Below, one piece after another: positions 13,039-24,935 of a stretch of 64,000 nucleotides of DNA; positions within the stretch are counted from its first letter, which is position 1; each line of letters begins with the position of its first letter. Under the pieces are notes generated by a model. It saw only the letters and a list, made by a program, of their open reading frames with translations, did not search any database and was not told where the DNA came from. Both the position numbers and the translations under genes were made by a program. Source of the stretch: Thermoanaerobaculia bacterium (GTDB lineage: Bacteria > Acidobacteriota > Thermoanaerobaculia > Multivoradales > JAHEKO01); NCBI GenBank assembly GCA_963781065.1, contig CAWAET010000002.1, positions 146,462 to 210,461 on the forward strand, in the 5' to 3' direction.

Positions 13039-16000
13039 GTGGAAACTCCAGAACAGAACGAAAGCGCCGGCTCTCCGCCGCGCAAACGGCGTGGCCCCGG
13101 CGCGGCAAGACCGGTGCCGCTGCACAAGCGCAGCAGCTCGCACTTCCGGCCGACCGTGCGCGAGCGCGGTCGACAGGACCTCGAGGCGGGACGGGTGACC
13201 CTGGAGGTCGACGACATGCGCAGCCGGGCGCGGGTCGAGGGCGCCGACCAGAAAACCTACGCGGTCGGGCTCGACTGGTCCCAGGTGGAAGCGAAACGGG
13301 CGCTGCATGCCTTCTGCGAATGCCGTCGGTTCGCGGCCGGCAAGCCCTGCGAGCACATCTGGGCGACCCTGCTGGCCCTGGCCGGTCACGGCAAGAGCAT
13401 CCAGCCGCCGGGACGCGACCGCGTCTCGCTGCGCAAGGACCGCGCCTCGGCCTGGGACGACCTGGGAATCTCGCCCGAGGCCCTGGCGCTGGCAGTAGCG
13501 GTCGAAGAGGCGCCGCCGCCGCCACGCTCGACCCAGCGCAGTCGGACCGCCGGGGCACGCCACTCCGCGACCTCCTGGCGGTCGCAGCTCGACTCACTGC
13601 GCGCCGAGGTCGGCCGGCTGTCGACGCCGGCGGTAGGCGCCCCCAAGACCGCCGACGCCAAGGTCGTCACCCGCTTTCTGGTCAACACCTCGGCCAGTCG
13701 CAATCAAGACGGCCTGGTTCTGGATATCTTCACTCGCAGGCTCGGCCCCGGCGGCCGGCCGGGCAAGCTCAAGCGCTCCGGCCTCGAGCCCGAAGCGCTG
13801 AGCCGGCTGCTGCTGCCCCAGGGCGCCGTCGCCGATACCAACGGCGACCTGCCGGTGATCACCGCCCTGGCTTCGGCGGCCAAGGCTCGGCAGGGGCGGG
13901 CTCGGCGCGGCCAGCAGAGCAACGGCAGGATCCAGCGCTTCCGCCTGCCGGATCGCCTGCACGAGGCGGTGCTCTCGAATCTGGCCGCGGCGGGCGTGCT
14001 CGGTTCCTGGGACGGCCGCCGGCTGAGCGAAGGCGCCGCCCTGAATTGGGACACCGGTCGGCCGTGGCGGCTCAGGCTGCGGCTGGCGGCGGCCGCCGGC
14101 GGCGCCAAGCTGGCCGGCAGCCTGGAGCGCAACGGCGACCGGGTGCCGCTGACTGCCCCGCTGCTGATCCTGCCCACCGCCAAGCCGGGCCGTTCGCTGG
14201 TCGTCTTCGCCGAGACCATCGGCGTCTTGCGGGCCGCCGAAAGCGAGCTGCACTGGATCACGCTGCTGCGCGACGCGCGAGAGATCGTCATCCCCGAGCG
14301 CGACCTCGAAGACGCGCTGACCGAGCTGCTCGAGATTCCCGACCTGCCCAGCCTCGAGATCCCCGATGAGCTGCGCGCCGCCGAGGAGACCTCGCCCCCG
14401 CGGCCGCGGCTGATGCTGACCAAGGACGCCAATTCGGTACTGCCCCACGCGCCGCTGCTGGCCGAGCTCTCGTTCCGCTACGGCGAGCTCGAGGTCAGCG
14501 CCCGGGACGCACGGCCGACGATCATCGAGTGGCCGGGCCCGACCCTGCTGCGGCGCGACATGGAGCGCGAGCACCAGCTGTTGATCCGCCTGCTCGAGGC
14601 CGGCGTCGAGCCGGTCCCCGGCAGCCAGGAGAACGAGATCGAGCTGTCGCCGCACAAGGTCCCGGCCGCCGCCGAGCTGCTGCTCATGGAGGGCTGGGAG
14701 GTGGAGATCAGCGGCGCCTCGCTGCGGGCGCCGGGCCCGCCGGCGCTGAGGATCGAGAGCGGCATCGACTGGTTCGAGCTCGCCGGCGGGCTGGAGTTCG
14801 CGGGCAACGAGGTCGAGCTCAAGAAGATCCTCGAGGCGGTCAAGAAGGGCCAGCGATTCGTCGCCCTCAAGGACGGCTCGCAGGGACTGCTGCCGTCGTC
14901 GTGGAGCGAGGCCTACGGCTCGCTGGCCCAGCTGGCCCAGGACACGAGCGAGGAAGGGCTGCGCTTCCTGCCGTCGCAGGCGATGCTGGTCGATGCCCTG
15001 CTGGTCGAGATGCCGCCGGCGGCGGTGGACAAGACGTTTGCCGAGCTGCGCGAGAAGCTGAGCTCGTTCGACCGCATCAAGCCGAAGAAGGAGCCGCGCG
15101 GCTTTGGCGGCACCCTGCGCGGCTACCAGCGCGAGGGACTCGGCTGGCTCGACTTCATGCGCCAGTTCGGCCTCGGCGGCGTGCTGGCCGACGACATGGG
15201 GCTGGGCAAGACGGTGCAGCTGCTGGCCCTGCTGCGCCTCAACCGCACGCCCTCGAAGACCACCGGCCTGCCCTCGCTGGTGGTGGTGCCGCGCAGCCTG
15301 CTCTACAACTGGCTCGAGGAGGCGGCGCGCTTCACCCCCAAGCTCAAGGTGGTCGAGTACAGCGGCCCCGGGCGCGAGGCCTTGCAGGGCAAGTTGGACA
15401 GCTACGACCTGGTGTTGACGACCTACGGCACGCTGCGCCGCGACATCGGGTATCTGGCGACGGTCGAGTTCGACACCGTCGTCCTCGACGAGGCGCAGGC
15501 GATCAAGAACCGCGACTCGCAGGCCGCCAAGGCCAGCCGGCTGCTCCAGGGCCGCCACCGGCTGGCGCTGACCGGCACGCCGATCGAGAACCATCTGGGC
15601 GAGCTCTGCTCGCTGTTCGAGTTCCTCAACCCGGGGCTGCTGGGCCGGCTGCCGACCCTCGAGATCCTCTCCAGCGGCCGCAAGGCGGGGGCCGACGAGC
15701 TGGCCAAGGTGGCCGCCGGCATCCGCCCCTTCATCCTGCGGCGGACCAAGGCACAGGTGCTGCCCGATCTGCCGGCGAAGACCGAGCAGGTGCTGCACTG
15801 CACCCTCAACCCGCGTCAGCGCGAGATCTACGACCAGCTCAAGGCCGGCTATCAAACCACCCTGCTGCGCCAGGCCGAGCAGGATGGCGTCGGCAAGTCG
15901 GCCATCCAGGTGCTCGAGGCGCTGCTGCGGCTGCGCCAGGTCGCCTGCCATCCGGGGCTGGTCAACGACGAGTGGGTCGAGGCCGGCAGCGCCAAGCTGG

Positions 16001-16494
16001 ACACCCTGTTCGACCTGGTCGACGAGGTGCTCGACGAGGGGCACAAGGTGCTGGTCTTCTCCCAGTTCACCAAGCTGCTCGGTCTGGTCCGGGAGCGGCT
16101 CGAGGAGCGCGGCATCGACTACGCCTACCTCGACGGCCAGACCCGCAACCGCGGTCGGGTGGTCGAGCGGTTCCAGACCGAGCCGAGCTGCAACCTCTTC
16201 CTGATCAGCCTCAAGGCCGGCGGCGTCGGCCTCAACCTGACCGCCGCCGACTACGTCTTCCTGCTCGACCCGTGGTGGAACCCGGCGGTCGAGGCCCAGG
16301 CGATCGACCGCACCCACCGCATCGGCCAGACCCAGCCGGTCTTCGCCTACCGGCTGATCGCCCAGGACACGGTCGAGGAGAAGATCCTCCAGCTGCAGAG
16401 CTCCAAGCGCAAGCTCGCCGACGCCATCCTCGGCGGCGAGGGCGGACCGCTCAAGGAGCTGACCGCCGACGATCTACGGATGCTGCTGAGCTAG
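13039..16494 (+). CDS. SWIM zinc-finger + SNF2/RapA-family helicase
   Basis: 1151-aa ORF with a SWIM motif CECRRFAAGKPCEHIWA near the N-terminus. SNF2 ATPase motifs: LADDMGLGKT, VLDEAQAIKN, LTGTPIENHL. Helicase C motifs: VLVFSQFT, LISLKAGGVGLNLT, DPWWNPAVEAQAIDRTHRIGQ. Confidence 0.85.
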   Translation: METPEQNESAGSPPRKRRGPGAARPVPLHKRSSSHFRPTVRERGRQDLEAGRVTLEVDDMRSRARVEGADQKTYAVGLDWSQVEAKRALHAFCECRRFAAGKPCEHIWATLLALAGHGKSIQPPGRDRVSLRKDRASAWDDLGISPEALALAVAVEEAPPPPRSTQRSRTAGARHSATSWRSQLDSLRAEVGRLSTPAVGAPKTADAKVVTRFLVNTSASRNQDGLVLDIFTRRLGPGGRPGKLKRSGLEPEALSRLLLPQGAVADTNGDLPVITALASAAKARQGRARRGQQSNGRIQRFRLPDRLHEAVLSNLAAAGVLGSWDGRRLSEGAALNWDTGRPWRLRLRLAAAAGGAKLAGSLERNGDRVPLTAPLLILPTAKPGRSLVVFAETIGVLRAAESELHWITLLRDAREIVIPERDLEDALTELLEIPDLPSLEIPDELRAAEETSPPRPRLMLTKDANSVLPHAPLLAELSFRYGELEVSARDARPTIIEWPGPTLLRRDMEREHQLLIRLLEAGVEPVPGSQENEIELSPHKVPAAAELLLMEGWEVEISGASLRAPGPPALRIESGIDWFELAGGLEFAGNEVELKKILEAVKKGQRFVALKDGSQGLLPSSWSEAYGSLAQLAQDTSEEGLRFLPSQAMLVDALLVEMPPAAVDKTFAELREKLSSFDRIKPKKEPRGFGGTLRGYQREGLGWLDFMRQFGLGGVLADDMGLGKTVQLLALLRLNRTPSKTTGLPSLVVVPRSLLYNWLEEAARFTPKLKVVEYSGPGREALQGKLDSYDLVLTTYGTLRRDIGYLATVEFDTVVLDEAQAIKNRDSQAAKASRLLQGRHRLALTGTPIENHLGELCSLFEFLNPGLLGRLPTLEILSSGRKAGADELAKVAAGIRPFILRRTKAQVLPDLPAKTEQVLHCTLNPRQREIYDQLKAGYQTTLLRQAEQDGVGKSAIQVLEALLRLRQVACHPGLVNDEWVEAGSAKLDTLFDLVDEVLDEGHKVLVFSQFTKLLGLVRERLEERGIDYAYLDGQTRNRGRVVERFQTEPSCNLFLISLKAGGVGLNLTAADYVFLLDPWWNPAVEAQAIDRTHRIGQTQPVFAYRLIAQDTVEEKILQLQSSKRKLADAILGGEGGPLKELTADDLRMLLS

Positions 16495-16631: not shown

Positions 16632-19589
16632 CTACTCCACCTGGAACCTCCAGGTGATCCGACCGACCTCGCGACCGCGGTAGAGCTGCCGGATCGCCAG
16701 GCTGTCGCCTGGCCGGGTGGCGTCGTCGACGTGGAAGGCGCAGTCGAACCGCGCCCCGGCGAGCAGCCGGAGCCGCCCGATCGCCACCCGCGGCTGCTTC
16801 GGGGGCACCAGCCGCACCTGCTCCGGCCTGCCGGTATTCTCCGGCGTCCGCCAGAGACGGCTACGACCGATCTGCGAGGCCAGCGCCGCCTGCGCGTCGA
16901 GCGCCAGGGTAGCCGGGGGCGCCAGGTTGCGGACGATCTCGAAGTCGAAGGTCCGCGCCCGGTCCGGAGTGCCGGTGATCAGGAAGGACAGCTCAGCCTT
17001 CCGGCCTGCCGGGACGCGGTGAACGTTGCAGAAGGCGACACCGGCATGCCAGTCGAGAAACGACAGATAGCGCCGCCAGTCGAAGTAGGGCCAGCGATGC
17101 GGCGGCACCGCCAGGCCCGGTGGGGTCCCCTCCTCGTCGCGCCGATCCTGCACCGTGGCGACAAAGCCGCAACGCCCCTCAGCGGGCGCCTCGAGGGCGA
17201 ATGCTCCGGACCAGACCGGAGATTCGGCCACCGCCACGGCGCCGCCGCCGGGCGCGGCCGGTAGCTCGCTCCACAGGTCGGGTGTCAGCAGGGTCGCGAC
17301 CGGGCACCCGTAGAGCTTGACGTCCGCCTGCTCGGCTCGCTGCAGGCCGCGGTTGTGGAGCCGCACGTGGACCGAGTAGGCCGCTCCGGGCGTCATCGGC
17401 GCCAGTTCGGCGGCACCCTCCTGCAGCGGGTCCGTCGGGCTCTCGCCGACGGCCAGCGCCACGATGTCGGGGCTGCAACAGGTCCGCCGCGCCACCGGCA
17501 CGGCGCCCTCGTCTTCCAGGCAGTCGCGGATGCCGAGATCCGACACCAGGCCCAACCCCTGGCGCAGGACGCGCCGGAGGTCGGGCATGACGCCGATCCG
17601 GCCGCGCACCCCGCGGCCCTGGCGGGTGCCGTATGTCGGATCGGCGAGCAGCCGCCGCATCTCCGATGGCGAGAGCCGGGTCCCGGCCAGCCGCTCGCGC
17701 ACTCCCTGGACCAGCAGGGCGGCGCCGGCGATGATCGGCGCCGCGCCGCTGGTGCCGCCGAAATAGGCCGTGTAGGCCCGTCTCGCGGCCACCTCCTCGG
17801 CCACCTCCGGATCTTCCAGATAGCCGTTCATGTCGCCGTAACCGGCGGTGGCCACGCGGTCGCCGTGGGCAAAACAGTCGATGCGTGAGCCATGGTTCGA
17901 GCCCACCCCCACCCGGCCCGACAGGCGATCGTGGGGCCGCGCCGAGCGCGCCGCGGCGACCATCAGGGCGCCCGATTCGCGGAAGTGCGGATGGCGGCGG
18001 TTCAGCACCCGCTCACCGCGCTCGTCGACATAGCGGTCGAGATCGGCGTTGCCGTTGCCCGCCGCCTCGATGACGATGATGCCATTGGCCACCGCCAGCC
18101 GGATGGCGTCACGGTCGGCCGGGTCGACCTCGGTGGGCAGGTAGCTGCGCTGCACCTCGAGCAGCAGCACGTCGCCAGGGTCCAGCCGATCGATGGCGTG
18201 GCGGATGCCGTTGGCCACGTTGCCGGAGGTCTGCTGGCCCTGGTCCCAGTGGGAGACCAGCTGTAGCCGATGGGTGCCCTTGCTGATGCCGCGCACGCCC
18301 TTGTCGTTGCCCCGCGTGGCGAGCAGCTCGGCCAGAACCGCCGTGCCGTGATGTCCCCGGTAGTCGCCGAAGTCGTGCCGGTTGTCACCGAAGACAAGAG
18401 CCGTGCCGAGGTCGACGTTCAGATCCTCGTGCGCCAGCCGGCCCGCCCCGTCCTCGAGCCAGCCCTGTTCGAGGTCCATGAAGCCGACGTCGAGCGCGCC
18501 GTCGGGCGTGTAGCGCCAGGCCCAACGGACGCCGAGCCCGGCTGGAGCCCGGTCCAGGTGTTCCTGCACCCCGAGGTAGGTGTCGTCCGGCGAGGGGTCG
18601 GTGGCGGCGAGCTCGCGATAGGCGAGATCGACCTCGGGCAGTTCGTTGAGCTGGCGGACGAATCGCCGGGCCACCTGACGATAGGAGGGCTCCCAGCCGT
18701 TGACGCGACGTTCGCCCGGCGCCGCCTCGATCTCGACGTGCAGGAAGCGCGCATCGATCCGCCAGTACGAGGACAGCGGGTTGAGGGGCGGCAGCGTGGA
18801 CCGCGCCGCCCGCCGCTCGAGCTCGTAGGTCGTGGGCCTGGGCTTGGGCCGCTCCTCTCGAGCTCCCTTTCGCCTGCCCTTTCTGCGCTCCCTTGGCTGG
18901 TCCTCGTCCCGCGCGCACTCTCTGCCGCGGTCCTCTGGCGGGTCCTCGTCCGGCGCGCGCTCTCTGCCGCGGTCCACCACGTCCACCAGCCGGCCGGTCA
19001 TGTCGGCCGAGATCCCGTGCCGCCGCAACACCCGCCGCAGCCCGACGAGCTCCAGCCGCCTGGCCGCCTCGCGCAGATCGTCCACCTCGTCCGCCAGGCT
19101 CAGGTCCAGCTCGGGCGACAGACGGACGACAATCCTACCGCTGTGCTGGATCGGGAAGCTTCTGCTCCGGCGGCGCGGCGAACACCGCTGACGACTCGCC
19201 CCCTGCCGCCGTCCGGCAAGGCGCCCACACAGCCGCCGCAGAAGTCGCTGGGTTCCTGGATCGTCAAGATCGCCAATACCCAGCGGCCGGGGGTCGTCGG
19301 GATCACCGATGTCAATCGGCCGCGGGTCGTCGGGATCACCGATGTCAATCGGCCGCGGGTCATCGGGATCGCCGATGTCGATCGGCCGCGGGTCGTCGGG
19401 ATCACCGATGTCGATCGGCCGCGGGTCGTCGGGATCGCCGATGTCAATCGGCCGCGGGTCGTCGGGATCGCCGATGTCAATCGGCCGTGGGTCGTCGGGA
19501 TCGCCGATGTCAATCGGCCGTGGGTCGTCGGGATCGCCGATGTCAATCGGCCGTGGGTCGGACAGGAAGAACGGTCCTTCTCGAGTCAT
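16632..19589 (-). CDS. S8 (subtilisin-family) serine peptidase with N-terminal 11-aa tandem repeats, no signal peptide
   Basis: Catalytic motifs FMDLEQGW (Asp), HHGTAVLAEL (His), GGTSGAAPIIAG (Ser). ATG at 19589 is preceded by CAAGAGGGAGAGGCAG and overlaps the stop of the upstream CHAT gene (ATGA). N-terminus MTREGPFFLS is followed by 8 x DPRPIDIGDPD. Confidence 0.8.
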   Translation of the reverse strand: MTREGPFFLSDPRPIDIGDPDDPRPIDIGDPDDPRPIDIGDPDDPRPIDIGDPDDPRPIDIGDPDDPRPIDIGDPDDPRPIDIGDPDDPRPIDIGDPDDPRPLGIGDLDDPGTQRLLRRLCGRLAGRRQGASRQRCSPRRRSRSFPIQHSGRIVVRLSPELDLSLADEVDDLREAARRLELVGLRRVLRRHGISADMTGRLVDVVDRGRERAPDEDPPEDRGRECARDEDQPRERRKGRRKGAREERPKPRPTTYELERRAARSTLPPLNPLSSYWRIDARFLHVEIEAAPGERRVNGWEPSYRQVARRFVRQLNELPEVDLAYRELAATDPSPDDTYLGVQEHLDRAPAGLGVRWAWRYTPDGALDVGFMDLEQGWLEDGAGRLAHEDLNVDLGTALVFGDNRHDFGDYRGHHGTAVLAELLATRGNDKGVRGISKGTHRLQLVSHWDQGQQTSGNVANGIRHAIDRLDPGDVLLLEVQRSYLPTEVDPADRDAIRLAVANGIIVIEAAGNGNADLDRYVDERGERVLNRRHPHFRESGALMVAAARSARPHDRLSGRVGVGSNHGSRIDCFAHGDRVATAGYGDMNGYLEDPEVAEEVAARRAYTAYFGGTSGAAPIIAGAALLVQGVRERLAGTRLSPSEMRRLLADPTYGTRQGRGVRGRIGVMPDLRRVLRQGLGLVSDLGIRDCLEDEGAVPVARRTCCSPDIVALAVGESPTDPLQEGAAELAPMTPGAAYSVHVRLHNRGLQRAEQADVKLYGCPVATLLTPDLWSELPAAPGGGAVAVAESPVWSGAFALEAPAEGRCGFVATVQDRRDEEGTPPGLAVPPHRWPYFDWRRYLSFLDWHAGVAFCNVHRVPAGRKAELSFLITGTPDRARTFDFEIVRNLAPPATLALDAQAALASQIGRSRLWRTPENTGRPEQVRLVPPKQPRVAIGRLRLLAGARFDCAFHVDDATRPGDSLAIRQLYRGREVGRITWRFQVE
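19257..19560 (-). repeat. 33-bp tandem repeat, about 9 units (8 near-identical plus 1 degenerate), in frame inside the S8 gene
   Basis: Unit GGTCGTCGGGATCRCCGATGTCRATCGGCCGYG on the plus strand, repeated head to tail. It encodes PRPIDIGDPDD x8 plus PRPLGIGDLDD. Confidence 0.95.
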
Positions 19590-22500
19590 CTGCCTCTCCC
19601 TCTTGCGTTGGGTGGATGCGAAACCGGCCTCACCTCGGAGGCTCGCGTGGCTTCCACGGGCTCTTGGATAGACGCGGCTGGGCGCCACTCACCCTGGATT
19701 ATGAAACCGGACCAGAAGTACGGGTGCGGGCGACTCGCTCGCAGAGTCAGCTGTGCCTTGCGGAGTGCCGCCGCTGGCGCGAGTCCTTCGACGAGCAAAC
19801 CGCGATAGAAGAGCTTCATCAGATCTGCCGTGGCACGGTCGCGCACCTTCCAGAGGCTGACGATCACCCGCGGCGAGCCGGCGTACATGAAGCCGCGGGG
19901 CAAACCGACCAACCCCTCGCCCCGCACTTGCTTGCCGAGCGCGGTCTCGCACGCGCTCAGTACCACCAGGTCAGCCTGCAGCTCGAGGTTGTAGACCTCG
20001 TGCGCCCTGAGGAGCCCGTCGACCGGCTCGCCCCGACGATCCACCTGCGACAGGACGATGCCGGAGAGGGCCGGCTGCTCGGCGTTCAACACGGCATGGG
20101 TCGCGAAATGAACGATCCGATAGCCCGCGAGCCGGCCCGAAACAACGTTCTGCTTGGTCGCGTCGAAGTCGAGCGCTCGGAAGGCCCCCTCCGACGGCAC
20201 CAGGCTGAGGATCGCCTCGGCTTCCGCTCGTGACTGCGGCAGCCGCGGCCAGGGGCCGGAGTCGATCTGCCCGTCTCTCGCCGGCGAAACGGCCGGAGCC
20301 CTGACCAGGCTCTGCGACCCGCGGCTTTCCCCGACGACCCTGCTGTCGTCGGGACCGAACACCGGATCCGCCAGAATGGCGATCGTCCCTCTGGGCCTCT
20401 GCCGGCCGTCGTCTCGTCGGAGCGCCGCGAGCGTCGAGGCGGAGGGAAGGTGGACGATCTCGTGGCTGACGACGAGCGGCTCGGCGGTCAGGCAGCGGTC
20501 CAGGGAAGACGGCTCCGGCAAGGCCCCGAACGGCAGGTACTCCAGGGCGCCGTCGGCGACGATGAGCAGCCGCTTGCTCCCCAGCCGGCTCGCCGCCGGC
20601 TGCAGGAGCTGGCGGCTCAACTCGCACAGCAGGGCCGTGGCGCGCCCTTCGCTCTGCCGCCGAGGGCCTTCCTGTAGCAGCTCGCGGATCGCCCGCACTT
20701 TGCTCTCGATCTCCAAGGCCGGCGCCAGCTCGAAGGCGGCCAACTCCTCGGTGGAGAGAAGCCACAAGTAGCTCCGCTCGCGAGCCAGCCGATACTCGAG
20801 CAGCACGGTGTCAGCGTCCAGCAGGCTGTCCTGGATCTCTCCCACGGTCAGCGGCGGCGGTTGGGTCAGGGCGGCATAGCGAGGACTCTGGCGTCGGATC
20901 GCGGCCCGGACCGCATCAAGCCGTTCCAAGGCAACTCCGACCGCCTCTGCCGCGGCCGCTCTCTGCGTCTCGCCAGCCGCCTCATCCTCCATCACCTCGA
21001 CGCTACGGTTGAGCACCCGCTGCATGGACCGCTCCTGCTCGAGAAGCTGCGGCGCAGCGCTGTCCCGGATCTCGGCCCCGGCCTCGCTGAGCAGGTCCAG
21101 CAGTGATCGCGCCCGCGCGCGCTCGTTCACCTGCAACGCGAGCGCGGCGTGCCCGGCCAGGGGGTCGGTCCGGTCAAGCTCCATCAACAGGTCGATGTAG
21201 AAGTCGAAGTACTGCTGCACGGCGGCAAAGAAGGAAACACGCAGCTCCTCGCTGAACGGCTTCAGCCGCAACCCCTCGATGATCTCGAGAGCCCGTCTGC
21301 CCGCCGCGAGCGCCGGTTGCAGTTCGCCCCGCTGACGCTCTGCGGTCGCCACCCCCAGGAGCGCTCGCGCCTTGCCGAGGGGGTCCCCGATCACGTTGTA
21401 GATCTCCAGGGCCGCGCGGTAGTAGTCGAGAGCTTCCTGGCCCCGGCCGAGCCGACTGTGAAGATCGCCGAGGTTGGTGAGCAGAGCGGCCTTCGACCTC
21501 GGACTGTCGACGGACTCGAGCAGTTCGAGAGCCTCCAGGAAGCTCGAGCGTGCCTGCTCGACGTCACCGCTGGCGAGCAGAACCGAGCCGATCTCCCGCA
21601 AGGCGACGGCCTCGCCCCTCCGGTCCTTCCGCTGGCGGCGGAGAGCCAGGGCATCGCGCAGAGTGTGGAGGGCGAGCTCGGTGTCGCCGGACTCGAAGGC
21701 CAGCTGGCCAATCTGGCTCAAAGAGGAAGCCTGCCAGCTCTCCTCACCCAGCACCGCGAACTCGCGCTCGGCCATTCGCAGCTGCTCGAGGGCCGCTTCT
21801 CGCCGGCCCTGCTGGCGGTAGAGCGTGCCGAGATTGTGCAGCTGGAAAGCCCGGTAGCGACGATCCTCTGGCCGATCGAGCCGCGCCAGAGACCCCTCGA
21901 AGCTGTCCAACGCCTTCTGCGTCTCTCCCTGGATCTTGTAGATGTTGGCCAGCGCTCCGAGCGAGATCCCCTCGCCGCGACGATCGCCCAACTCCCGATT
22001 CAGCGCCAGCACTCGGGTGTTGTAGCCGATCGCCCGCTCCATCTCTCCCAGCTCGAAGCAGTCCGTCGCCAGATGGCCCAAGCTGACCGCGAGGAACCTC
22101 GGCGCGGCTTGGCGCTCGAAGGCCGCCACCGCCTGCTCGTGGAAACTGGCCGCCCTGGCCCAGTCGCCGAGATGGCGATACGTGCTGCCGATCCGGTCCA
22201 GGCTCTCCGCCTGCCAGAACTCGTCCCCGGCACGGCGCCACCGTTCCAGCGAGTCCTGGAACGGGATCAGGGCCTCGCGGTATCTCCCGTCCCAGTACAG
22301 CTGCTCGCCCTCGTGGAACTTCCGCGCCGCCTGCGCTCTGAGCTGCTCGCCAACGCCGGCTCGGCGCAGAGAGACCAGGGAGAGCACGTAGTCGCCACCG
22401 GCATCCTCGCTCTCCCACGCCTGCAACCGAAGCCGATGGGTACCGCTTTGCACGGCGACCCCGAGCATGGGCTCGACGCCGAGATCGGCGATTGGCAGGT

Positions 22501-22852
22501 CCATCTCGAGTAACAGGCCGTCGTCCGGCCCGAACAGGCTCAGGCCGACGTCGATGCCCCTCTGTTCCACCTCGAGGTCGAAGTAGTCGCCGGCTTCGAG
22601 AACCAGTAGATAGTCGTGGACCTCGCCCGGCAAGACGCGGCCTTCGATCGGCTCACCAAGCGAGAGCCGCGGCAGCCCTTCGTTCCCGGCGCTCTCCGGC
22701 GTCGACACAGCGATGGCCTCCGCCTTGGCGCCTGCCGGCTCAACGCTCTCCTCCCGCGCCGCGGGGCAGGCGCCCAGCACCAGGGCGCCCGCAAGCGCCG
22801 CCGCCCGCCACCGTCGCGCGACGCAACTCCGGCTCAGCATTCGTCTCCACAC
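19586..22852 (-). CDS. TPR-repeat CHAT-domain (caspase-fold, clan CD) protease, probable lipoprotein
   Basis: N-terminal signal with lipobox LVLGAC. A PPC-like beta-sandwich segment (GEVHDYLLVLEAGDYFDLEV...YVLSL) is followed by a long TPR array. The C-terminal CHAT has His motif IVHFATHA and Cys motif LVVLSACETALG, ending in PYFWSGFIIQGEW. The alternative start ATG 22840 is equally plausible. Confidence 0.85.
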   Translation of the reverse strand: MWRRMLSRSCVARRWRAAALAGALVLGACPAAREESVEPAGAKAEAIAVSTPESAGNEGLPRLSLGEPIEGRVLPGEVHDYLLVLEAGDYFDLEVEQRGIDVGLSLFGPDDGLLLEMDLPIADLGVEPMLGVAVQSGTHRLRLQAWESEDAGGDYVLSLVSLRRAGVGEQLRAQAARKFHEGEQLYWDGRYREALIPFQDSLERWRRAGDEFWQAESLDRIGSTYRHLGDWARAASFHEQAVAAFERQAAPRFLAVSLGHLATDCFELGEMERAIGYNTRVLALNRELGDRRGEGISLGALANIYKIQGETQKALDSFEGSLARLDRPEDRRYRAFQLHNLGTLYRQQGRREAALEQLRMAEREFAVLGEESWQASSLSQIGQLAFESGDTELALHTLRDALALRRQRKDRRGEAVALREIGSVLLASGDVEQARSSFLEALELLESVDSPRSKAALLTNLGDLHSRLGRGQEALDYYRAALEIYNVIGDPLGKARALLGVATAERQRGELQPALAAGRRALEIIEGLRLKPFSEELRVSFFAAVQQYFDFYIDLLMELDRTDPLAGHAALALQVNERARARSLLDLLSEAGAEIRDSAAPQLLEQERSMQRVLNRSVEVMEDEAAGETQRAAAAEAVGVALERLDAVRAAIRRQSPRYAALTQPPPLTVGEIQDSLLDADTVLLEYRLARERSYLWLLSTEELAAFELAPALEIESKVRAIRELLQEGPRRQSEGRATALLCELSRQLLQPAASRLGSKRLLIVADGALEYLPFGALPEPSSLDRCLTAEPLVVSHEIVHLPSASTLAALRRDDGRQRPRGTIAILADPVFGPDDSRVVGESRGSQSLVRAPAVSPARDGQIDSGPWPRLPQSRAEAEAILSLVPSEGAFRALDFDATKQNVVSGRLAGYRIVHFATHAVLNAEQPALSGIVLSQVDRRGEPVDGLLRAHEVYNLELQADLVVLSACETALGKQVRGEGLVGLPRGFMYAGSPRVIVSLWKVRDRATADLMKLFYRGLLVEGLAPAAALRKAQLTLRASRPHPYFWSGFIIQGEWRPAASIQEPVEATRASEVRPVSHPPNARGRGR

Positions 22853-23123
22853 TGCTCGCTCGAGCCCGAACCGCCGTCAGCGGCCGCTTCGATTCGTGGA
22901 TCGGTCACCGAGTTCTCCTCGAGACATTGACGCGGACTGAAATCGGAACCTTAAAGCCAGTCTCTCACAAGCACTGGCGACAGGCAGAGCGGTCAGCGCG
23001 ATCTCCGAGCCTCACCGTACTCCTGAAGCCTGGCCCTCTTCGATGAAGAGGCCACGGTAGGCCGAGCCGCACCAGGCCTCGCCCCCTCCCGGCTCCCGGC
23101 GGGGAGCCGGCGCCCCCTCCTCC

Positions 23124-24935
23124 CTACTCCTCCGCCACCGGCAGCCCGAGCGAGCGCATCAGGGCCAGGGCATTGCCGCGGGTGACGGTACCGGGCCGCA
23201 GCCGGTAGTCGAAGGCCATGCGACCCTGCTCGAGGTGGTCCTCGAAGTGGACGTTGACCGCCGCCGGCGCCAGCTCGTCGGCGATCTCGGCCAGCGCCAG
23301 GTCGTGGGTGGTGACCAGGCCGATCGCCCCCGCATCCAGCAGCCCGCGGATCACCCCGGCGGCACCGAGCCGCCGGTCGTGCGAGTTGGTGCCGTGCAGG
23401 ATCTCGTCGAGCAGGAACAGGGTCGGCCCGGCCGCCGCCAGCTCACCGATCTGACTGAGGCGCTGCAGCTCGGCGTAGAACCGCGAGACCCCCTCGAGCA
23501 GCGAGTCGTGCAGCTGGATGCTGGCACCCACCTGCAGCGGGGTCAGCCGCAACCGGCTCGCCGGCACCGGTGCACCGGCGAGCGCGAGGACCGCCGCGAC
23601 GCCCACCGTGCGCAGCAGCGTGCTCTTGCCCGACATGTTGGACCCGCTGACGAGCAGGAGCCGCGGCCCATCACCGGTCGCGGAGCCGCCCAGAACGACG
23701 GTGTTGGCCACCCTCGCCCCGACCGGCAGCAACGGATGGGCGAGGTCGCCACCCTCGAGCCGCGGCGGCCCGTCAAGGATCTCCGGCAAGACGTACTCCG
23801 GGTTCTCGTAGGCAAACGTCGCCAACGAACTGAGCGCCTCGAACTCGCCGATCGCCCGCAGCCAGCCGCCCACGGCCGCGCCGTGCCGCGCCCGCCAGCG
23901 CTCGGCGGCGAAGGCGAATTGGGTGCCCAGGAGCAGCAGCGCCGCGATCGGCTGGAAGAAGAGGTTGCCCCGCGAGTCGTTCCACTCGATCAACCGGGCC
24001 AGCTCGAGGAGCCGCGCGCTCGGCCGTTGCCGGGCGTCGGCGGACCGGCGCTGCAGGTCGCGCAGCCGGGCGCTAGTAAAGCTCTGCGATTCGAGCCGGC
24101 TCAGCAGCCCCGCCAGGAAGCGCAGCTCTCCAGCCGGCGCGGCGAGGCCGGCCAGCACTTCCTTGACGCGCGCCCTCACCGCCAGCGCCAGCAGCCCGGC
24201 GACGGCGAGCCCCGGCAGAACGAAGCGGCCGGGGAGCGGCCCCGACAGCCAGGCGGCGAGCGCGGCTAGATTGATCGCTCCGAGCACGGCCGCGACGACC
24301 GGCCCGGCCGCCCCGCTGAGCCGCGCTGGCGCGCGGCCCCACCTATCGAGATCCTCGCCCCGGACCTCGGGCGACAGGTCGGCCGCCAGGATCGTCAGCT
24401 CCTCGCGCAGATCGAGCCGCTCACGAAGCTCGGTGGCGGCCTGCTGACGGCCTGCGATCCGCTGCGGCGTGGCGGGAGCCGACAACCACGCGGCCAGCGT
24501 CTGCCGCCCGGGAAGACTGTGCGCCGTGCAGAGCAGCGCATAGACCGAGCCGCGGCCGAACAGATCGAGATCCTCGGCATAGGGATGCTCCTCATCGCGG
24601 TACTCGGCGCCCTCGTCGAGCGGATCGGACCAATCTCCGGCCAGCCGGGCCAGGCCCCGCCGGTAGAAGGCGGCGGCCAGCCTTCGCCGGGCCAGCGCCG
24701 AGACGACCGGACCGTGCGCCGCCACCAGGGCGACGAACGCAGCCACCGGCAGGGCGAGCCAGGCCGGGTGCCATGTGCCATTGACCAGCACCGGCCACAC
24801 CATGGCGGCGGCGACCAGGAAGACCGCCACGCGAGCGTTGCCCAGCCGCCGGTCCAACCGGTCCAGCCGGGCGATCTCGGCCTCGCGTTGCCCGAGCCGG
24901 CGCGGGTACTCCTCCTGGGCGGCGGCTTGCGGCAC
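23124..24935 (-). CDS. MutS-related ABC-type ATPase (MutS domain V only) with N-terminal transmembrane segments
   Basis: 603-aa ORF with several hydrophobic helices in the first ~260 aa. The C-terminal MutS ATPase has motifs SGSNMSGKSTLLR, LLDEILHGTNSHDR, TTHDL. No mismatch-binding or Smr domain is evident. Confidence 0.75.
   Translation of the reverse strand: MPQAAAQEEYPRRLGQREAEIARLDRLDRRLGNARVAVFLVAAAMVWPVLVNGTWHPAWLALPVAAFVALVAAHGPVVSALARRRLAAAFYRRGLARLAGDWSDPLDEGAEYRDEEHPYAEDLDLFGRGSVYALLCTAHSLPGRQTLAAWLSAPATPQRIAGRQQAATELRERLDLREELTILAADLSPEVRGEDLDRWGRAPARLSGAAGPVVAAVLGAINLAALAAWLSGPLPGRFVLPGLAVAGLLALAVRARVKEVLAGLAAPAGELRFLAGLLSRLESQSFTSARLRDLQRRSADARQRPSARLLELARLIEWNDSRGNLFFQPIAALLLLGTQFAFAAERWRARHGAAVGGWLRAIGEFEALSSLATFAYENPEYVLPEILDGPPRLEGGDLAHPLLPVGARVANTVVLGGSATGDGPRLLLVSGSNMSGKSTLLRTVGVAAVLALAGAPVPASRLRLTPLQVGASIQLHDSLLEGVSRFYAELQRLSQIGELAAAGPTLFLLDEILHGTNSHDRRLGAAGVIRGLLDAGAIGLVTTHDLALAEIADELAPAAVNVHFEDHLEQGRMAFDYRLRPGTVTRGNALALMRSLGLPVAEE

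Follow-up and report, generated by a model that had tools for sequence, protein, structure and literature searches.

Arrays of identical short peptides with synonymous variation between their coding copies are known from eukaryotic precursors, and modules in which TPR-CHAT proteases are associated with extracytoplasmic function (ECF) sigma factors have likewise been described. Here we describe an array of identical 11-residue peptides that forms the N-terminus of a peptidase S8 protein in a Thermoanaerobaculia bacterium, and the lipoprotein TPR-CHAT protease that is encoded next to it. The locus lies in a stretch of 64,000 nt (contig CAWAET010000002.1, positions 146,462 to 210,461 of the forward strand), hereafter called the window; all positions below are those of the window. 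Among the described arrays, the yeast alpha-factor precursor MFalpha1 contains tandem peptide copies that show synonymous differences only and vary in number, and its array combines turnover with purifying selection (PMC5850478). The window array is similar to the MFalpha1/Kex2 system in its tandem short identical peptides, its synonymous variation, and the involvement of an S8-family protease. However, MFalpha1 has a signal peptide, spacers, dibasic sites, and a separate protease, whereas the array in the window is fused to a leaderless protease and is without spacers or dibasic sites.

The closest counterpart of the neighboring gene is DdvA, a periplasm-facing TPR-CHAT protein found with an ECF sigma factor and a zinc-binding anti-sigma domain. 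DdvA has been proposed to be a sensor of a protein signal and a site-1 protease (PMC11506125). The proteins described here share the periplasm-facing TPR-CHAT architecture with its His-Cys dyad, and the genes for sigma factor, anti-sigma factor, and TPR-CHAT protein stand in a row at the related loci L001, L113, L115, and L117. In contrast to DdvA, where the same chain also holds a transmembrane helix and a zinc-binding anti-sigma domain, the TPR-CHAT protein is a separate lipoprotein, and an anti-sigma factor, where there is one, is a protein of its own. A further difference is the repeat-bearing S8 gene that follows it, and the window is without a sigma/anti-sigma pair within 64 kb. Other TPR-CHAT proteases are engaged by disordered partners. 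Separase and craspase (Csx29) are engaged by securin and Csx30, respectively, as pseudosubstrate or substrate, and craspase is linked to an ECF-type sigma factor (PMC10028731; also discussed in PMC11506125). These systems are cytoplasmic, and the partners in them do not consist of identical motifs in tandem.

A TPR domain that reads a short peptide is also the basis of the Rap-Phr and other RRNPP systems. The peptide determines specificity, and Phr is matured by subtilisin-type proteases. Phr precursors are small, secreted, and mostly contain a single mature peptide, and the RRNPP receptors are cytoplasmic and without CHAT. The S8/TPR-CHAT pair would have the TPR reader, the short peptide, and the subtilisin-type protease in common with Rap-Phr; CHAT occurs only in the former. 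The cyanobactin precursor PatE is composed of cassettes with conserved recognition sequences around hypervariable cores, on which the S8 proteases PatA and PatG act. The S8 proteins described here differ in that precursor and protease are one protein and that the cores of a given array do not vary, and the neighborhood holds no heterocyclase, macrocyclase, or other gene for ribosomally synthesized and post-translationally modified peptides (RiPPs). A RiPP precursor is not supported. Finally, the intracellular subtilisins (2wv7, 2x8j, and 2xrm) are the nearest solved structures by sequence, with weak matches (E = 1e-4 to 3e-5), and they also appeared in the fold search. They are leaderless S8 proteases under the control of an N-terminal extension, but this extension is ~18 residues long and non-repetitive, and they have neither the C-terminal beta-sandwich domains nor a TPR-CHAT partner.

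As far as sequence comparison and a structural model can tell, we regard several properties of the array as firmly established. It is real and translated in the sense frame, every residue of every unit is under purifying selection, it is predicted to be intrinsically disordered, it is swapped as a whole between lineages, and such arrays are confined to S8 genes with a lipoprotein TPR-CHAT partner. In the window, Tandem Repeats Finder reports a 33-nt period at 19284-19560 with 8.4 copies, 96% matches, and a score of 484. An earlier account drawn from the letters of the window only (the sequence-only reading) had described about nine in-frame 33-bp units at the 5' end of the S8 gene, and as assembled the array indeed consists of eight units with the same peptide and a degenerate ninth:

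19293-19556, minus strand: units 1 to 8 (8 x 33 nt; S8 protein residues 12-99), all with the peptide PRPIDIGDPDD
19260-19292, minus strand: unit 9, a degenerate edge unit encoding PRPLGIGDLDD

A chance origin of an eightfold 33-nt repeat is impossible. Only four columns vary within units 1-8 (CCA/CCG, ATT/ATC, GGC/GGT, and GAC/GAT), and all four are third-position transitions and synonymous, in agreement with the sequence-only reading. With 11 synonymous positions per 33-nt unit, the probability that four random variable sites are all synonymous is C(11,4)/C(33,4) = 0.008. In the wobble-aligned antisense frame of the window, the count is likewise four synonymous and no nonsynonymous columns. 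An antisense open reading frame (ORF) at 19309-19671 on the plus strand reads MSIGRGSSGSP eight times, also with synonymous differences only, the reason being that it shares its wobble positions with the sense frame. This ORF is a caveat for synonymous-only arguments that are drawn from one sequence. Since the probability is ~0.008 and the antisense frame is equally synonymous, the window by itself is only modest evidence for selection.

The view of the sequence-only reading that the peptide is under purifying selection, and hence functional, is borne out by relatives of the array rather than by the window alone. We compared the DNA of nine orthologous loci and the window (10 arrays). All variable columns among the units are synonymous (67/67); only ~20-24% of random single-base changes would be. 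A six-frame control on the same arrays found no true nonsynonymous column in the sense frame; two columns were scored for L118, where the register is shifted into the leader. In the antisense frame that is wobble-aligned, 61 columns were synonymous and six nonsynonymous, and the remaining four frames gave about 0/67. The antisense ORF 19309-19671 was rejected as a coding sequence on the basis of this control. In 16 more distant arrays, there are 99 synonymous columns versus 19 in codons with an amino-acid change.

Furthermore, the age of the arrays can be judged from the probability that two units use the same codon, compared with the expectation from codon usage. The observed and expected values are 0.58 and 0.54 for L111, 0.53 and 0.47 for L113, 0.55 and 0.50 for L116, and 0.45 and 0.42 for L117. 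Because the codons of these four arrays are at the usage expectation, their synonymous sites are saturated and there has been no recent DNA homogenization. Despite this saturation, their unit peptides are identical. Younger arrays are those of the window (0.84 observed versus 0.61 expected) and of L001 (0.90 versus 0.57). In the 72 units of the close clade, there are no D/E or I/V swaps between units. The S8 gene of the window also holds a second tandem repeat at 18894-18975, located in the insert of the prodomain-like region (42 nt, two copies, 92% matches). In contrast to the N-terminal array of the same gene, its copies EDRGRERAPDEDPP and EDRGRECARDEDQP differ in 3 of 14 residues. The synonymous-only columns, the frame control, the saturation, and the contrast with the 42-nt repeat exclude a DNA- or RNA-level function of the array, and the same results argue against a role by composition alone. 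Saturated synonymous sites with zero amino-acid differences, together with replacement of the array as a whole, separate selection on each copy from homogenization of the DNA.

N-terminal tandem arrays are present in 48 of 111 homologues. Their units of 10-14 residues occur in 2-10 copies and consist of ~27% Pro and ~22% Asp, and 32 of the 48 arrays show 100% identity among their units. Next after the array come a linker, either Arg/Cys-rich or with a Cys cluster, and the conserved YSGxIVVRLS motif. Between proteins, the Asp/Pro frame is kept and the core varies, DP being the only feature that is invariant across units. The frames and cores are as follows:

Window's clade (10-11 residues): frame DP-x-P-core-DP(D)D, with cores IDIG, EDWH, SDWH, EDMV, and EEWY
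Window's clade, further cores: EDMI, EESG, QEMR, EEMR, and IHSMG
Distant clade (mostly 12-13 residues): frame typically DP-xxx-(Y/F)-V-M-P-x-P-D, for example DPGSDYVMPDPD

In an exhaustive search of 1.84 billion representative proteins, the broader S8 family comprised 823 representative clusters at E <= 1e-30, the majority of which have no array. The best 150 matches of this search, made against 50%-identity representatives, included 123 new proteins, and 13 further arrays were found among these. A search with the N-terminal 148 residues alone returned no homologues, probably because of low complexity. Proteins of the distant clade (for example P0044, P0054, P0132, and P0134) have the short conserved motif M-x-R-(C/N)-L-H-I-T-I-x-E before the array, and orthologues of the window protein share M-x-G-x-GPFF-x-SDP; neither motif is a signal peptide. 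Many relatives (P0003, P0004, and P0044-P0095) have a dense Cys cluster after the array, such as CxCCC, CCKPCCC, or CGCGCGC, for which metal binding and redox sensing are possibilities. The linker of the window has only two Cys, in contrast to these relatives.

These comparisons also bear on the idea that the array is not a selected protein feature at all, but an assembly artefact, a slippage contingency locus, or a by-product of coding on the other strand. It could appeal to an array that is unspanned by reads and whose units 1-3 are identical across ~100 nt, and to the plus-strand ORF that is synonymous-only in the window too. We consider it extremely unlikely. Both edges of the array are reproduced by short-read contigs (Logan) from independent sediment metagenomes, and the same metagenome contigs reproduce the junction of units 3 and 4 (19425-19487) and the variant units 5 and 6 (19351-19413). 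In run X1, a co-occurring strain carries two changes in unit 9, at 19266 and 19290, both of them synonymous. Over 60 independent arrays are found at this very place in homologues, and across the orthologues the six nonsynonymous antisense columns stand against none in the sense frame. A 33-nt unit also keeps the frame and cannot switch expression on or off. The sequence-only reading had proposed an N-terminus of variable phase or length. Since a unit comprises complete codons only, on/off phase variation is unlikely, but length variation between lineages is real, at 2-10 copies.

The array-bearing S8 genes share a partner. In each case examined, the gene directly upstream of the S8 gene, with the same orientation, encodes a TPR-CHAT protein of ~1,040 residues. 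In the window, this is the following gene:

19586-22852, minus strand: lipoprotein TPR-CHAT protease, upstream partner gene, with lipobox VLGAC and TPR_12 repeats; its TGA overlaps the ATG of the S8 gene

The CHAT domain of this protein spans residues 741-1054 (Pfam CHAT, 232.7 bits, in addition to TPR_12), and the CHAT His (HFATH) and Cys (LSACET) motifs can be read in its translation. The N-terminal lipoprotein signal is found in all orthologues and in the distant clade. Linkage was counted at about 110 loci of the S8 family. Thirty of the CHAT-linked loci have repeats and three do not; of about 70 CHAT-less loci, none has repeats where the upstream sequence suffices. The sole array for which no CHAT gene can be seen comes from a contig that ends too early for one to be visible. 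The linkage of array and CHAT gene is highly non-random (Fisher's exact p = 6.5e-23), and the CHAT-less S8 homologues have unrelated neighbors. The sequence-only reading had raised the case of homologous subtilases without any repeat. Such subtilases exist, but the case holds only for S8 homologues that are unlinked to a CHAT gene. The array marks a two-gene module that is widespread in Acidobacteriota, Thermoanaerobaculia, and other uncultured lineages.

The array-bearing ORF is at 16632-19688 on the minus strand, and its real start is the ATG at 19589-19587, which gives a protein of 985 residues. The features of the gene other than the array are as follows:

19593-19600, minus strand: Shine-Dalgarno-like GGGAGAGG, 3 nt before the ATG (GGAGG at the same place in orthologues)
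19557-19589, minus strand: start codon and leader MTREGPFFLSD, without signal peptide, the leader being conserved in orthologues
19146-19259, minus strand: Arg-rich linker, residues 111-148, net charge ~+9, two Cys, one predicted short helix at 111-121
18600-19145, minus strand: prodomain-like region, residues 149-330, which opens with conserved (Y/H)SGxIVVRLS and contains a variable low-confidence insert
17550-18572, minus strand: peptidase S8 catalytic domain, with Asp372, His414, Asn512, and Ser614 conserved in the family
16632-17522, minus strand: two C-terminal beta-sandwich domains (residues 690-985) and stop, pLDDT mostly >90

The position of the ATG, the GGAGG, and the leader conserved in orthologues place the array within the gene, so that the start is not downstream of it, a possibility that the sequence-only reading had entertained. 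This start codon and the TGA that ends the upstream gene together form ATGA (19586-19589), an arrangement that would be suited to co-expression of the two genes. No hydrophobic leader was seen by eye at the N-terminus of any family member examined. PF00082 matches residues 407-650 with 41 bits (curated cutoff 21.8, E = 1.9e-10), and the Pfam scan of the S8 protein found no other family at E <= 0.01, including none for the prodomain-like region. The Asp-His-Ser triad is present in the canonical order together with the oxyanion Asn. In family alignments, H414 and S614 are invariant, as are D372 and N512 in A1/A2; in A3, the latter two reach a conservation of 90% or more. At the C-terminus, RQLYRGxEVGRITW is a further conserved motif. 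Identity as a mycosin of a type VII secretion system (TIGR03921) was rejected, with 39 bits against an equivalog cutoff of 278.75.

The structure was modeled with AlphaFold2 on a 93-sequence alignment (mean pLDDT 80). Disorder of the array, for which the sequence-only reading had proposed structure prediction, is indicated by a pLDDT of 30-45 over residues 1-109. The Arg-rich linker is also predicted to be disordered at residues 122-145, and the subtilisin domain occupies residues about 340-680. The top Foldseek matches are subtilases, with E down to 7e-12 and a target TM-score of ~0.65. All matches of the model are generic subtilases that provide no functional clue for the C-terminal domains. 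The predicted disorder, together with the content of ~27% Pro and 22% Asp, would be typical of docking motifs.

The charges of the array and of the linker are opposed. In the window, the array has a charge of -24 and the following linker +9, and the medians of the 10-11-residue clade are about -27 for the array and +9 to +19 for the linker, which in the orthologues is an Arg/Cys-rich or Cys-cluster (CxCCC) segment at the same position. Since this opposition accompanies a disordered array, and since the nearest solved relatives 2wv7 and 2x8j have an inhibitory N-terminal extension, the array might be an intramolecular acidic pro-segment that acts with neither an outside partner nor recognition of a specific sequence. 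It would shield the active site of the S8 domain or the basic/Cys-rich linker, or it would solubilize the zymogen. We find this unlikely. A role by composition would tolerate D/E and I/V swaps, none of which has occurred in the 72 close-clade units despite saturated synonymous sites. The linker of the 12-13-residue clade is neutral (median 0) and its arrays persist. Neither the lineage-specific cores nor the strict link to TPR-CHAT would be explained.

The Asp content has also suggested metal binding, in which the repeats would chelate Ca2+ or another metal and stabilize or regulate the protease. Subtilases commonly depend on Ca2+, each unit of the window holds four Asp, the net charges of the arrays range from -5 to -43, and Cys clusters follow the array in many relatives. 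However, Pfam gave no RTX, EF-hand, or TSP3 match, and neither GGxGxD nor DxDxDG is conserved in the unit consensus sequences. DP, the sole invariant feature, is not a chelating pattern, and the hydrophobic or aromatic cores (such as DWH and YVM) that are identical among units would be left unexplained. Metal binding is therefore very unlikely. The sequence-only reading had offered a simple spacer or a Ca-binding segment as functions of the array. Both are disfavored because every residue is identical among units and because there is no match to a known Ca-binding repeat family.

The explanation that we tentatively favor is one of recognition, in which the array is a multivalent element, specific to each lineage, by which the S8 protein is coupled to the lipoprotein TPR-CHAT protease encoded with it. 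The array would be a disordered N-terminal extension of the leaderless S8 protease, and each unit of 10-13 residues would be an individually selected short linear motif, in which an Asp/Pro frame, DP-x-P...DP(D)D, surrounds a lineage-specific core of ~4 residues (IDIG in the window). The units might dock in the TPR solenoid or in the CHAT active site, as a tether, a pseudosubstrate, or a substrate, in a manner resembling that of securin with separase and of Csx30 with craspase. It is the physical binding of the array to TPR-CHAT, and the consequence of this binding, that we infer. In many relatives, the S8/TPR-CHAT pair would belong to an ECF sigma/anti-sigma module. In ECF sigma signaling, TPR-CHAT proteases of the envelope have been proposed to act as sensors, as in the case of DdvA, and the array is a candidate partner for such a sensor. 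Recognition of the array would agree with the proposed sensing of a protein signal by the periplasmic TPR-CHAT of DdvA, upstream of an ECF sigma factor (PMC11506125). The protease-recognition array of the sequence-only reading comes closest to this explanation, although the relevant protease is most likely the neighboring TPR-CHAT, which had not been considered.

Several points weigh against this explanation. The chief problem is that the predicted compartments differ, the S8 protein being leaderless and the TPR-CHAT protein apparently exported. A description of an S8 N-terminal array or of its link to TPR-CHAT was not found in the literature searched, including the ECF classification paper. 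PADLOC gave no match for the S8 protein, and for TPR-CHAT it gave a match to a generic TPR model only. Among the Logan short-read contigs, none crosses the whole array, all of them breaking inside it, and the count of eight units plus one is that of the assembly. Furthermore, when all 55 pairs are taken together, TPR-CHAT and the repeat core show no significant co-divergence (Spearman 0.08, p = 0.58), and the signal in close pairs consists of only two independent lineage events.

These two events deserve a closer description. The closest relative of the window, L118, has eight DPRPEDWHDP units, so that the core has changed between L118 and the window from EDWH to IDIG. The amino-acid identity between the two loci is ~93% for an SNF2 helicase, 79% for the S8 core, and 54% for TPR-CHAT. 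The L113 lineage shows the same behavior. In close pairs, defined by an S8 identity of at least 64%, TPR-CHAT is conserved about as well as S8 where the core is the same or nearly the same, and it lags by ~16 points where the core has switched, namely in the window and L113 lineages. We do not take this co-divergence as proof because it is not significant over all pairs. The arrays would evolve by occasional replacement of the whole array with one unit variant, followed by long stasis with synonymous change only.

The mismatch of compartments could be bridged if the peptides were freed from the protein. The array may be a polyprotein-type precursor that is cut into many identical ~11-residue peptides, which would serve as a lineage-specific signal for the periplasmic TPR domain. 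The cutting would be done by the S8 domain during prodomain maturation or by CHAT, and the peptides would arrive via export or lysis. The array is fused to a protease and is N-terminal to a prodomain-like region of the kind that subtilases normally remove, and its constant frame and variable core resemble a recognition sequence and a payload. Identical tandem peptides with synonymous variants are, moreover, the hallmark of the alpha-factor precursor MFalpha1 (PMC5850478). Nevertheless, a signal peptide is lacking, the conserved neighborhood encodes no exporter, and the units abut directly, without spacer or dibasic site, only the DP(D)DP frame being common to them. The frame itself is rich in Pro (D-P and P-x-P). 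Such Pro-rich sequences resist most serine proteases. A precursor of this type is, in our judgment, doubtful.

A more specific version of recognition between the two proteins would be a system for reading identity. The cytoplasmic S8 protein would carry identical "self-label" peptides that are read by the envelope TPR-CHAT, and peptides from lysed kin or from self-processing would trigger proteolytic signaling to the ECF sigma factor. Label and reader would co-diversify as in pherotype or kin-recognition systems. That the pair constitutes such an undescribed lineage-specific recognition system, with co-diversifying label and reader, is a speculative proposal to which we give little credence.

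The ECF genes are a variable part of the neighborhood. Loci L001, L113, L115, and L117 encode, 5' of TPR-CHAT, an ECF sigma factor together with a ~255-residue protein. The latter protein has a HxxxCxxC zinc-finger anti-sigma motif and one hydrophobic stretch. An adjacent ECF sigma factor is absent at L110, L111, and L118, and no ECF sigma/anti-sigma gene was found by tblastn within the 64 kb of the window. The repeat unit is similar to the anti-sigma cytoplasmic segment PDPAPxxGVADLE, but a link between the two was rejected, since the segment is conserved while the cores vary, without covariation.

At all ten orthologous loci, TPR-CHAT and S8 are separated by a spacer of 71-86 nt, unlike the ATGA overlap of the window. 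In nine of the ten spacers, GGATCT is present as a conserved motif, and in most cases a short GC-rich hairpin comes after it, ~50 nt upstream of the S8 start codon. The motif and hairpin could be a promoter or an RNA element that was lost in the window. On its other side, in the 22853-24935 region, the TPR-CHAT gene of the window is directly preceded by a gene for a MutS domain V protein (23124-24935, minus strand). An ALGX-domain gene lies between MutS and TPR-CHAT in L118 and L110, and also upstream of TPR-CHAT in L001. Since this gene is missing from the window, the locus has been rearranged in the lineage that also switched the repeat core.

The annotation of these loci requires care because gene callers can miss the array-bearing N-termini, and may do so systematically. 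The database entry for the L118 protein, P0002 (826 residues), starts at an internal ATG. Its true ORF extends 393 nt further upstream (L118 5608-6000), and the call had lost an array of eight units. On the other side of the S8 gene, the window encodes the convergent SNF2-family helicase mentioned above (13039-16494, plus strand), which has a SWIM finger and a bacterial SNF2-associated domain and strongly matches the PADLOC models of DpdE and ZorD (E down to 2e-145). The helicase, ~93% identical in L118, is syntenic in L111 and L115, and it may be part of a defence system beside the S8 gene.

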